Of a stretch of 15,900 bases of DNA, positions 12,171 through 14,448 are shown in pieces. Below the pieces are notes generated by a model. The model was given only the letters and a program-made list of their open reading frames with translations. It did not search any database and had not been told where the DNA came from. The stretch comes from a virus. Its lineage: Duplodnaviria > Heunggongvirae > Uroviricota > Caudoviricetes. Location of the stretch: IMG/VR virus record IMGVR_UViG_2695420863_000009, one strand, 5' to 3'. Positions within the stretch are counted from its first letter, which is position 1. Each line of letters begins with the position of its first letter. The translations under genes and the position numbers were made by a program.

Positions 12171-12545
12171 ATGGAATTTAAAGATTTACCAGTACCATTC
12201 CAGGAAATGGCATCGAATGTGGTTCGCTCTCAACTGGCGACTCTTGACCTGAGTACCGTAGAAAAAGAAACCATCGATACTATATCCGGTAACGTGCGTC
12301 GTGCCTTTATCGGTCTGTACGAAGAGAAGCAGCTCTCTGATAACCAGGATTTACATGAAAAATACTTCCTGGAATTAATGGACATCATTAATAAAGGATT
12401 TGGCTTGTTAATGAAAAAGAAAGGGATTCGAATAGCTCCCCTTGAAAATCATTTTACAGCGAGCAGTATTAATTCCTGTGATTTAAAGCATCACACATCC
12501 GATGGGAAAGTTGAATCAAACAACAAAATATCAATTAATCATTAA
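12171..12545 (+). CDS. hypothetical protein, variant A (conserved N-terminal 52 aa, unique C-terminus)
   Basis: 124 aa from the ATG at 12171 (SD tgaggt). The N-terminus MEFKDLPVPFQEMASNVVRSQLATLDLSTVEKETIDTISGNVRRAFIGLYEEK is shared with the 13809 gene; the C-terminal half is unrelated. Confidence 0.5.
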   Translation: MEFKDLPVPFQEMASNVVRSQLATLDLSTVEKETIDTISGNVRRAFIGLYEEKQLSDNQDLHEKYFLELMDIINKGFGLLMKKKGIRIAPLENHFTASSINSCDLKHHTSDGKVESNNKISINH

Positions 12546-12555
12546 TTTATTCACA

Positions 12556-13032
12556 GGTGAGGTAGAGTGCGTGCGCCGGACACGGATAAGAATCCGGCAC
12601 TGACAGTTTACTGAAAAGGATATATCCCTGAAAAGTCAGGGCATAACACGAAAGCGCCCGGCGAAGTTAGTCTCTCTGTATAGGTCGTCGTTAAATTTAA
12701 TTCGATCGTGCGCTTCCGGTTGTGGCAATCCGCGAAATGGCGCGGCGGTAAGTATGGCGGGGTTATTCCTTCCCCGTTGAGGACACCGGGTTGTCAGGTT
12801 GACCATACGCTTAAGTGACAACCCCGCTGCAACGCCCTCTGTTATCAATTTTCTGGTGACGTTTGGCGGTATCAGTTTTACTCCGTGACTGCTCTGCCGC
12901 CCTTTTTAAAGTGAATTTTGTGATGCGGTGAATGCGGCTGAGCGCACGCGGAACAGTTAAAACCAAAAACAGTGTTATGGGGGGATTCTCTGTATCCGGC
13001 GTTAATTGTTAACTGGTTAACGTCACCTGGAG
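12556..13032 (+). repeat. repeat copy 1: structured leader + dicF + dicB 5'-UTR segment
   Basis: About 90% identical to 14489-15019 and identical to 15575-15869 over the shared part. Ends at an N-run. Confidence 0.8.
12850..12902 (+). ncRNA. dicF: DicF-like sRNA, copy 1
   Basis: TTTCTGGTGACGTTTGGCGGTATCAGTTTTACTCCGTGACTGCTCTGCCGCCC followed by TTTTT; matches the 53-nt E. coli DicF as I recall it. Intrinsic terminator at the 3' end. Confidence 0.75.
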
Positions 13033-13045
13033 NNNNNNNNNNNGT
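13033..13045. other. assembly gap (13 N)
   Basis: Run of N directly after repeat copy 1. Confidence 0.95.
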
Positions 13046-13152
13046 CGGTTTTTTTGTGCCATAACTTCTGCAAATCAGCTGTATAACTAATATTTTTCCC
13101 TTGAAAAAACATTTACATAGTTACCAAAACAAAAATATCATACGCCATACTG

Positions 13153-13181
13153 TTGACTTAAAATATCCGCGTTACTAATAT
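13153..13181 (+). promoter_or_regulatory. putative strong sigma70 promoter
   Basis: TTGACT, 17-bp spacer, TAATAT, with an AT-rich upstream region, about 70 nt upstream of the ydfA-like ATG. No GTAAC-N4-GTTAC operator was seen nearby. Confidence 0.4.
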
Positions 13182-13252
13182 TTCTATCAAGAACAGCACG
13201 GCGCTGTAGGTTTTAGTTCCGCCACCCGGCGTTAAGGGGAAATGAGGTCAGC

Positions 13253-13408
13253 ATGGATACTATCGAGCTTGGCAACAACGAATCTCTGGTGTACGGCGTG
13301 TTTCCCAACCAGGACGGCACATTCACCGCGATGACGTATACCAAAAGCAAAACGTTTAAAACCGAAAATGGTGCCCGTCGCTGGCTGGAAAGAAACTCAG
13401 GTGAGTGA
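13253..13408 (+). CDS. ydfA: YdfA-family small protein (DUF1391), copy 2
   Basis: 51 aa, MDTIELGNNESLVYGVFPNQDGTFTAMTYTKSKTFKTENGARRWLERNSGE; same SD as copy 1. Below the track cut-off. Confidence 0.75.
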   Translation: MDTIELGNNESLVYGVFPNQDGTFTAMTYTKSKTFKTENGARRWLERNSGE

Positions 13409-13409
13409 T

Positions 13410-13538
13410 ATGGATTTCGACACAATCATGGAAAAGGCTTACGAAGAATACTTCGATGGTCTTGCCGAAGGCGAAGAAGCTCTCAGCTTCAGTGAATTTA
13501 AACAGGCGCTTTCCAGTTCGGGAAAATCTAACGGCTGA
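13410..13538 (+). CDS. ydfB: YdfB-like small acidic protein
   Basis: 42 aa, MDFDTIMEKAYEEYFDGLAEGEEALSFSEFKQALSSSGKSNG; starts 1 nt after the ydfA stop. Matches my recollection of YdfB/YdaG. Confidence 0.6.
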   Translation: MDFDTIMEKAYEEYFDGLAEGEEALSFSEFKQALSSSGKSNG

Positions 13539-13567
13539 TAAGCGAAACAGCACCGCGAGGAATCAGT

Positions 13568-13786
13568 ATGCAGAAACGAGAACCCGTCATCATCGCGCCA
13601 GACTATACCGATGATGAACTTTATGAGTGGATGCGCCAGAAAATTAATGCAGTGCAGGATCTGAAATGGGCCAATGAAGCCAGGACTAAGCAGGCTGAAA
13701 ATCTGTCCGCTCTGGAGCAGGATATCACCAGGCTGGAAAAAGCAGCGGCATTAAGCATTGCCAGAATGGTTACATACCCACGTTAA
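13568..13786 (+). CDS. ydfC: YdfC-like protein
   Basis: 72 aa with SD aggaa; MQKREPVIIAPDYTDDELYEWMRQKINAVQDLKWANEAR… matches my recollection of YdfC. Confidence 0.65.
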   Translation: MQKREPVIIAPDYTDDELYEWMRQKINAVQDLKWANEARTKQAENLSALEQDITRLEKAAALSIARMVTYPR

Positions 13787-13808
13787 TAGCTAACCAACGA
13801 GGCTAATA

Positions 13809-14210
13809 ATGGAATTTAAAGATTTACCAATGCCATTCCAGGAAATGGCAGCGAATGTGATTCGCTCTCAACTGGCGACTCTTGACCTGAGTACTGTAGA
13901 AAAGGAAACCATCGATACTATATCCGGTAACGTGCGTCGTGCCTTTATAGGTCTGTATGAAGAGAAGCGCCTATTCGGCGGACAGAATTCGCCTGAAAAC
14001 AAGAATCAAGCAAATGATGAGAAGCTGAAACACATTATCGCCTTACTTTTGGAAGACGCAAAACGTCTACAGCAACTGGAACCAAATGCAGGCACAGAGG
14101 CCCGCATTTGGATTGCCATGAAATCACTCAAATGTGAAAGCAGTGATTATTTCAAAACAACAATTAAAACTACTCAACTTTCGGGAGAGCTACTGAAGAA
14201 ATTGCCATAA
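13809..14210 (+). CDS. hypothetical protein, variant B (same N-terminal 52 aa as the 12171 gene, different C-terminus)
   Basis: 133 aa. The N-terminal 52 aa are nearly identical to variant A (3 substitutions); the C-terminal 80 aa are unrelated. The 3' end overlaps the convergent minus-strand gene by about 40 nt. Confidence 0.5.
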   Translation: MEFKDLPMPFQEMAANVIRSQLATLDLSTVEKETIDTISGNVRRAFIGLYEEKRLFGGQNSPENKNQANDEKLKHIIALLLEDAKRLQQLEPNAGTEARIWIAMKSLKCESSDYFKTTIKTTQLSGELLKKLP

Positions 14211-14448
14211 GAGCATGGTCTTTCTCTTGTTCTGCAAGATGAGCATTAATACCTGGTATGGTTTTTTCAAATTTATCTATCTGTTGAATAACAACTTCGC
14301 GGTATACGTTTGTTTTTGTACCACCAAGCGCAGCCGTTAATGCAGAAAGCATATTTAGTATCATATCAGTGCGATATGAAAGAATCCTGATAGCTTCATC
14401 TTGTTCTTCAATAATAGATTGCAGGGCCTCAATTTGCTTTTTATCCAT
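14170..14448 (-). CDS. hypothetical protein, convergent with variant B
   Basis: 92 aa from the ATG at 14448 with strong SD aggagg. The sequence looks helical/coiled-coil (MDKKQIEALQSIIEEQDEAIRIL…). It is the only minus-strand gene inside the plus-strand operon. Confidence 0.45.
   Translation of the reverse strand: MDKKQIEALQSIIEEQDEAIRILSYRTDMILNMLSALTAALGGTKTNVYREVVIQQIDKFEKTIPGINAHLAEQEKDHALMAISSVALPKVE

Follow-up and report, generated by a model that had tools for sequence, protein, structure and literature searches.

The 15,900 nucleotides (nt) of IMG/VR virus record IMGVR_UViG_2695420863_000009, here called the window, are part of an Escherichia coli-type lambdoid prophage. They raise the question of why two genes that lie 1.2 kb apart, A and B, encode proteins with nearly the same N-terminus and wholly different C-termini, and why only B is overlapped by a convergent gene, C. 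A first-pass annotation of the sequence had taken A and B for neighboring paralogs of a polymorphic effector or specificity type, and C for a cognate partner or antisense regulator of B. We think it probable that A and B are instead two alleles of one accessory gene, which come from two prophages and were scaffolded together, and that the slot that they occupy, beside the small RNA DicF, is a hot spot of cassette exchange.

The N-terminal module and the adjacency of genes A and B

Alignment of the two proteins delimited the part that they share. Residues 1 to 53 are identical at 50 of 53 positions, the substitutions being V8M, S15A and V18I (BLASTP, 53/63 identities, E 8e-38). At the DNA level, 12171-12330 and 13809-13968 are 95% identical, after which no similarity is found until 12552 in one copy and 14485 in the other. 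The variable DNA in between measures 221 nt for A (12331-12551) and 516 nt for B (13969-14484, gene C included). The coordinates, the common N-terminus of about 52 residues with three substitutions and the total divergence that follows, all read from the sequence in the first-pass annotation, were confirmed in both protein and DNA. The two C-termini were also considered as fast-diverged homologs; profile comparison gave no signal, and we treat them as unrelated.

The adjacency of the two genes is almost certainly an assembly artifact. Two runs of N interrupt the window, at 13033-13043 and 15551-15574, and both fall exactly at breaks of colinearity with complete genomes. The sequence before the first run (7100-13032) and that after the second (15575-15900) both match one contiguous stretch of the complete genome E2855, the former with 99.75% identity, and the two matches overlap by 251 nt; in the window itself, 12782-13032 and 15575-15825 are 100% identical to each other over these 251 nt. 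The order in E2855 is repressor, ydfA, A, DicF, dicB, ydfD and exonuclease, each in a single copy. The 2507 nt between the N runs (13044-15550) match a contiguous stretch of LC-1302-2020 with one mismatch, and their counterpart there follows another repressor than that of the window. This piece starts in the middle of the terminator hairpin of the LC-1302-2020 repressor; at its 3' end, it includes just the first 60 nt of the exonuclease gene. Neither junction was found in the window order among the best matches listed from 5426 complete E. coli genomes, in which the two halves of a junction map 660-930 nt apart or in reversed order. We also surveyed 163 related loci from IMG/VR, E. albertii and deposited phages. 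None has A and B in tandem; they hold a single open reading frame (ORF) with the module, one locus having a second, broken copy, and the 82 loci typed for DicF have at most one copy of it each.

The same join explains the three DicF matches of the window, which span less than 3 kb and all exceed the gathering threshold of the RF00039 covariance model (76.7-77 bits, threshold 48 bits). The contig overlap accounts for one of them as a duplicate, another lies on the inserted contig, and the real prophage holds a single copy. It could be argued that the N runs mask short stretches, as genome collections do in places, of one prophage with a triplicated dicF region and with A and B as true neighboring paralogs, all the more as the O157 prophage CP-933O may, according to a published description, have arisen from two or more fused prophages (PMC5069750). 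This is very improbable given that the N runs coincide exactly with the colinearity breaks, that the flanks are identical over 251 nt, that the inserted piece begins mid-hairpin and ends mid-gene, and that its order is absent both among the matches listed from complete genomes and in the related loci. Because of this evidence for a join, we regard A and B as alleles of the same position in two prophages and give up the earlier idea of paralogs 1.2 kb apart in one locus. Very many of the module proteins in the database are "partial" ORFs that lie at the end of a contig. Draft assemblies of E. coli seem often to break in the module, presumably owing to its repetition in prophages that share a host genome. 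The lesson is that scaffold joins in repeat-rich prophage regions can mimic neighboring paralogs.

The constant N-terminus with variable C-terminus is nonetheless a genuine property of a protein family, as had been suspected. We found the module in about 34 clusters at 50% identity, at residue 1 in each except for one weak internal repeat match. The proteins span about 30 to 370 amino acids (aa), the 22 sequences inspected being 86-208 aa long, and the clusters inspected have at least five unrelated C-terminal types. This diversity was established by an exhaustive search of representatives; a search with the 55-aa module gave mostly short partial proteins. Twelve positions are invariant down to about 40% identity (M1, K4, L6, P7, Q11, A14, L22, K32, V42, R43, F46 and Y50). 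The AlphaFold2 model predicts that the module is a helical hairpin (residues 8-23 and 32-56) with predicted local distance difference test (pLDDT) scores of 80-86. No family match and no secretion or trafficking domain were detected in this hairpin of about 50 aa. A 52-aa protein of phage phi191 was tried as a standalone form of the module and rejected, as it is the product of a frameshifted VT2-type gene.

Protein A is 100% identical in many genomes of Shiga toxin-producing E. coli and is annotated as WP_000394557.1. None of A, B or C had been given a recognizable family, and sequence searches of these proteins, and of the B2 and C2 proteins described below, against Pfam, NCBIfam, PADLOC and the Protein Data Bank (PDB) indeed found nothing above threshold, nor any relative of known structure. 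Each of the three does, however, match a PHROG of unknown function over its full length: A phrog_6937 (E 1.3e-76), B phrog_1363 (E 3.9e-45) and C phrog_18692 (E 8e-63). The A C-terminus and C had no tblastn match in 50,697 deposited phage genomes. As judged from these searches, the alleles are known from prophages alone, apart from the B2/C2 pair in phage Evi.

A variable slot beside DicF

Genes A and B occupy one position in an operon that runs repressor, ydfA (then, in some prophages, ydfB and ydfC), slot, DicF, dicB, ydfD and exonuclease. The Qin prophage of E. coli K-12 lacks exactly positions 13807-14462, that is, B and C. Its ydfC runs directly into the DicF precursor, and positions 2562 and 2563 of the K-12 locus (L002) are contiguous across the B and C interval. 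The slot is likewise empty in the isolated phages PhiR42_1 and vB_EcoS-640R1.

Several distinct alleles fill this position in the loci surveyed. A occurs alone, with a 148-aa protein that has two transmembrane segments, with a 73-aa gene, or, shortened to 106 or 109 aa, with a 91-aa gene that we call C3. B is accompanied by C (31/31 loci), B2 by the unrelated 77-aa C2 (58/61 loci, and also the isolated phage Evi), and a 212-aa type by a 73-aa gene (9/9). Swapping of C-terminal cassettes in related prophages, which the first-pass annotation had proposed to look for, is what this survey uncovered, with multiple tails and partners at one slot. Its statement that B alone is paired is true of the window, but A-type alleles have other convergent genes elsewhere. 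The upstream context, either ydfA only or ydfA-ydfB-ydfC, is freely combined with A or B; in the window, the gene-A copy of the operon has a ydfA-like gene and lacks ydfB and ydfC. Recombination breakpoints lie at about residue 54 (A/B), residue 31 (Evi/B2) and residue 100 (A tails).

On the other side of the slot, the same leader and ribosome binding site (RBS) precede at least three convergent genes, C, C3 and the 73-aa gene (leader translation ...ENSLITNPQEGEM). We aligned the leaders of the window, Salmonella, PPompW, the copy-1 region and K-12. K-12 has no convergent gene and yet retains the leader, since this DNA doubles as the DicF precursor. In the leader/DicF precursor, at 14485-14600 (and at 12552-12670), lie two hairpins that are perfectly conserved in E. 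coli, K-12 Qin and Salmonella; in the minus-strand reading, they are CCCTGACTTTTCAGGG and GCCGGA...TCCGGC.

Among the complete E. coli genomes, 4776 of 5426 (about 88%) have the dicF region; the A-type tail is found in about 470-680 and the B and C cassette in about 125-170. Carriers of B and C include VR50, 118UI and LC-1302-2020. Insertion/deletion polymorphism between conserved flanks in otherwise colinear prophages, the hallmark of a hot spot for prophage accessory genes ("morons"), is thus what this position displays, and the slot that holds C is a real, previously uncharacterized variable site in a well-known operon. A search of the literature on the dicBF operon found no paper describing the slot genes or a variable slot upstream of DicF. 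The slot matters because the operon is common in E. coli and because DicF and DicB are well studied.

Gene B as a fusion and the convergent genes

By sequence comparison, B is an in-frame fusion of the N-terminal module with a small protein that we call the L-module. Residues 69-131 of B are 60% identical to a standalone 71-aa protein of Salmonella prophages, and residues 69-117 match the N-termini of four other PHROGs. The gene for the 71-aa protein directly follows the repressor, is accompanied by neither the N-terminal module nor an Rfam-level DicF, and is convergent with a homolog of C (71% identical), again with an overlap of 41 nt. The L-module core, LKHVIALLLEDAKRLQQLEPNAGTEARIWIA, is present in standalone proteins of Erwinia, Cronobacter, Citrobacter, Serratia, Enterobacter, Hafnia and others. 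In all four prophage contexts examined, the L-module gene is among the first genes past the repressor, and in three of them (two Salmonella types and Cronobacter) a convergent overlapping gene follows it, these convergent genes being unrelated between contexts. The next gene is KilR in the Erwinia and Cronobacter contexts.

A third short helical module (YHxTMVKALR...E..L) was seen after the N-terminal module in the E. coli proteins P0081 and P0083, and after the L-module in a 102-aa Salmonella protein (L176, 3001-3309). The small proteins of the early-left region look like in-frame assemblies of at least three interchangeable mini-modules.

Gene C has the features that had been ascribed to it, namely, a strong RBS (GGAGGG, 5 nt ahead of the ATG) and an overlap of about 40 nt with B, in fact 41 nt. 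Far from being missing in homologous loci, the 92-aa ORF was present in 31/31 B-type loci, and the overlap was always 41 nt. A RelB-like antitoxin match of C remained below threshold (E 0.014; 15.6 bits, cutoff 50). C3 is probably a distant homolog of C, to which it aligns over its full length with 28% identity (hhalign, E 2.7e-5), and no similarity signal was obtained between C and the 73-aa slot gene. The SieB profile PF14163 was matched by none of C, C2, C3 or the 148-aa, 73-aa and 66-aa slot genes, and Pfam and PADLOC searches of the remaining slot genes gave nothing above threshold. The 148-aa protein with two transmembrane segments is found in some A-type prophages (for example, those with the A-type tail KVEANYKISINH); SLATT, the family to which it shows a weak resemblance, is an effector of DRT defense systems. 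A scan for consensus terminators found none after B or C.

The module, the C-termini of A and B, and C are under purifying selection. For the module of gene A, the ratio of nonsynonymous to synonymous substitution rates (dN/dS) is 0.14, and for the core of its C-terminus, 0.19; against the Salmonella homologs, it is 0.20 for the B C-terminus and 0.25 for C. Module values lie between 0.14 and 0.47 in most comparisons and reach 0.80 among mosaic B2-type alleles. The structure predictions that had been suggested as a check gave a hairpin for the module and three helices for C (mean pLDDT 67), but the C-terminus of B was modeled as helices of low confidence, and the B and C models, when compared by Foldseek with solved and viral structures, had no significant match except a family member from phage phi191.

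The features of the window are listed in Table 1. At the start of the 2507-nt piece (13044-13250), two promoter-like sites, at 13112-13141 and 13153-13181, follow the half terminator hairpin; in the second prophage type, these would make up the early-left promoter region. That type has, in LC-1302-2020, immunity of the YdaS/YdaT kind. Far from the slot, the minus strand carries a hok/sok type I toxin-antitoxin locus (5362-5686), in which a Hok-like ORF (5362-5574, ...MKQQKAMLIALIVICLTVIVTALVTRKDLCEVRVRTGQTEVAVFTAYEPEE) adjoins a sok RNA (RF01794, 117 bits). The same strand has, at 270-786, the small RNA STnc100 (RF02076, 138 bits) and then three tRNA genes (540-613, 630-703 and 714-786). STnc100 with a tRNA cluster is familiar from lambdoid and Stx-type prophages.

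Table 1. Positions of the main features in and around the slot
Feature	Position	Strand	Remarks
LexA/CI-type repressor of the gene-A prophage	11018..11734	+	
ydfA-like DUF1391 gene	12007..12159	+	Directly upstream of gene A; Pfam PF07151, E 4e-28
Gene A, 124 aa	12171..12545	+	N-terminal module, residues 1-53 (12171-12329), then A-type C-terminus
DicF precursor region, gene-A copy	12552..12850	+	About 300 nt; lacks the RBS of a convergent gene
DicF small RNA, copy 1	12851..12902	+	Rfam RF00039, 76.7 bits
N run, first scaffold join	13033..13043		
2507-nt piece from the second prophage type	13044..15550	+	99.96% identical to the LC-1302-2020 stretch (L182, 2001-4507)
ydfA in the 2507-nt piece	13253-13408		
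ydfB in the 2507-nt piece	13410-13538		
ydfC in the 2507-nt piece	13568-13786		
B and C cassette, 656 nt	13807..14462		Precisely missing from K-12 Qin
Gene B, 133 aa	13809..14210	+	N-terminal module 1-53, linker 54-68, L-module 69-133
Gene C, 92 aa	14170..14448	-	Convergent with B
Leader and RBS of the convergent gene (minus strand), 5' DicF precursor (plus strand)	14449..14784		Right constant flank; two conserved hairpins
DicF small RNA, copy 2	14785..14836	+	Within the 2507-nt piece; Rfam RF00039, 77 bits
dicB in the 2507-nt piece	15020-15208		
ydfD in the 2507-nt piece	15205-15396		
N run, second scaffold join	15551..15574		
DicF small RNA, "copy 3"	15644..15695	+	Copy-1 sequence repeated in the 251-nt contig overlap

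Competing explanations and known systems

Our proposal is that DicF-type lambdoid prophages have a hot spot of recombination at the slot, within their repressor-controlled early-left (dicBF) operon, with a conserved sequence on either side. The left flank would be the first 160 nt or so of the plus-strand gene, which encode the two-helix module of about 50 aa, and the right flank the leader and RBS of the minus-strand gene, which are also the 5' part of the DicF precursor. Homologous recombination would take place in these flanks, also at other sites within them, and would swap the DNA in between, which encodes the C-terminus of the plus-strand gene product and holds the convergent gene in full; such exchange would generate the constant-N, variable-C appearance. 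B would stem from an in-frame fusion of the module to an L-module protein; elsewhere in the Enterobacterales, the gene for such a protein may typically stand by itself in first place behind the repressor, in most cases with a variable gene convergent to it. Position and orientation suggest that the convergent genes, C among them, are accessory and expressed in the lysogen, where they may act in superinfection exclusion or abortive infection. On induction, early-left transcription would then run antisense through them and switch them off while B is being made. If the convergent genes do prove to be exclusion or defense determinants, the slot would be an accessible new source of very small antiphage proteins, and DicF would be linked to the sas/sieB antisense circuit of P22.

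Several observations weigh against this proposal. C has no similarity to SieB or to any PADLOC defense model, and defense is hinted at in the slot solely by the 148-aa gene, with a weak match to SLATT (PADLOC, E 0.002). A scan for consensus sigma-70 promoters, which bears on the putative expression of C in the lysogen, gave none for this gene. The cassette model does not explain the repeated in-frame combinations of the N-terminal, L- and YHxTMVKALR modules (N+L, N+Y and L+Y), which suggest that the tails may have a functional part beyond mere linkage. Finally, the B alleles are near-identical, and the in-frame fusion may be a single recent event not yet tested by selection.

The partnership between B and C might alternatively be a cognate one. 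The tail would bind the convergent protein, the N-terminal module would serve as an adaptor and the overlap would provide antisense control, in an effector-immunity or toxin-antitoxin pair or an exclusion factor with its self-immunity protein. The B C-terminus and C are linked in all 31 E. coli loci and again in Salmonella, where their counterparts are 60% and 71% identical to them and likewise overlap by 41 nt, and both are under purifying selection; linkage is also tight between B2 and C2 and between the 212-aa type and its 73-aa gene, and the RelB-like match of C, albeit below threshold, points the same way. Linkage is, however, expected anyway of adjoining, overlapping DNA, and the genes are convergent, not cotranscribed. 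A stands alone in hundreds of genomes, its C-terminus is seen with four different downstream states, and C3, a homolog of C, goes with the A C-terminus, which is unrelated to that of B; partner and C-terminus therefore lack the covariation expected of a cognate pair. No family of toxins, antitoxins or immunity proteins was matched at threshold, and no exclusion or defense family could be detected either, which goes against the polymorphic toxin, immunity or exclusion modules first envisaged. Inducible phages, moreover, function with an empty slot. The earlier notion of a cognate partner retains the B C-terminus/C pair that is maintained in Salmonella under purifying selection, but effector-immunity as a general account is weakened by the lone A, by the four neighbors of its tail and by the C homolog beside that tail. 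We find the cognate reading doubtful.

It may also be that an ancestral gene was broken into by illegitimate recombination or by the insertion of cassettes, and that the variable C-termini are neutral by-products of this; chimeric tails and part of the small ORFs would then be functionless debris decaying in cryptic prophages. Many members are indeed truncated or frameshifted (P0078, P0010, P0052, P0002 and the 52-aa form of phi191), the tail of A is cut short next to C3, leaving proteins of 106 or 109 aa, the C-terminal halves were modeled with low confidence, and there is almost no diversity among B alleles. We consider this unlikely in view of the low dN/dS values of the A C-terminal core, the B C-terminus and C, the presence of the B2/C2 pair in the isolated phage Evi, and the conservation of the L-module family across many genera. 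A bolder version of our own proposal, in which the slot is a hot spot of small exclusion or abortive-infection genes (the C family, C2, the SLATT-like protein with two transmembrane segments and others) that are expressed in the lysogen from one shared leader, the C-terminus of the module protein is a cognate, Esc-like self-immunity factor and the DicF precursor is a sas-like cis-antisense regulator, strikes us as quite unlikely; were it true, it would point to an ancestral role of DicF.

Among known systems, the Qin dicBF operon is the same operon, with 91-96% DNA identity to the window in ydfA, ydfB, ydfC, DicF, dicB and ydfD, and differs in its empty slot. The spread of the operon and its multiple copies in pathogenic E. 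coli are already documented, and the published account of it includes only ydfABC, a long untranslated region with dicF, dicB and ydfD (PMC5069750). The sieB region of Rac, lambda and P22 offers a close parallel to the filled slot. The Rac order is racR, ydaG, ydaF (DUF1391), convergent sieB, the small RNA kilS and kilR. Here as in the window, the early-left operon has a convergent gene between a DUF1391 gene (ydaF or ydfA) and a small RNA (kilS or DicF), which in turn precedes a cell division inhibitor (kilR or dicB). The 3' end of DicF together with the DicF-dicB spacer (14831-15004) has 79% identity to the corresponding stretch of K-12 Rac (L171, 3750-3916), namely, the 3' end of kilS and the spacer before kilR. 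DicF and KilS, which occupy equivalent places in their operons, may be homologous. Since the gene order and, in part, the flanking DNA match those of Rac, C stands in the position of sieB. The sas RNA of P22 is made from the early-left transcript. This antisense RNA regulates sieB translation (PMC12197685). The likeness is one of position: C has no similarity to PF14163, which Rac SieB matches at 1.5e-31, and is predicted to be a soluble helical protein of 92 aa, not a membrane protein, and the slot also remodels the 3' end of the upstream plus-strand gene.

In polymorphic toxin and immunity systems, as at the slot, the N-terminal part is conserved, the C-terminal parts are unrelated, and a small neighboring gene varies together with the C-terminus. 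They differ from it in that the slot proteins have neither a secretion or trafficking domain nor a recognized toxin domain, their tails comprise only 40-160 residues, the partner is convergent, not downstream and codirectional, and one allele (A, in the window and in E2855) has no partner at all. Type II toxin-antitoxin systems differ in that the slot genes are convergent, not cotranscribed, and have no family match above the cutoff. The hot spots of P2 and P4 (PMC9122126 and its preprint) and the morons of lambdoid phages resemble the slot in their conserved flanks, their presence/absence variation and the many unrelated small genes at one position of prophages that are otherwise colinear. 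The genes of the slot, unlike those of phage defense hot spots, match no known defense model save for the one weak SLATT match. The slot is further set apart from such hot spots by its left flank, which lies within a coding sequence, so that each exchange makes a new chimeric protein. Cassette exchange between conserved flanks at a sieB-equivalent slot thus fits the locus better than a polymorphic effector system does.

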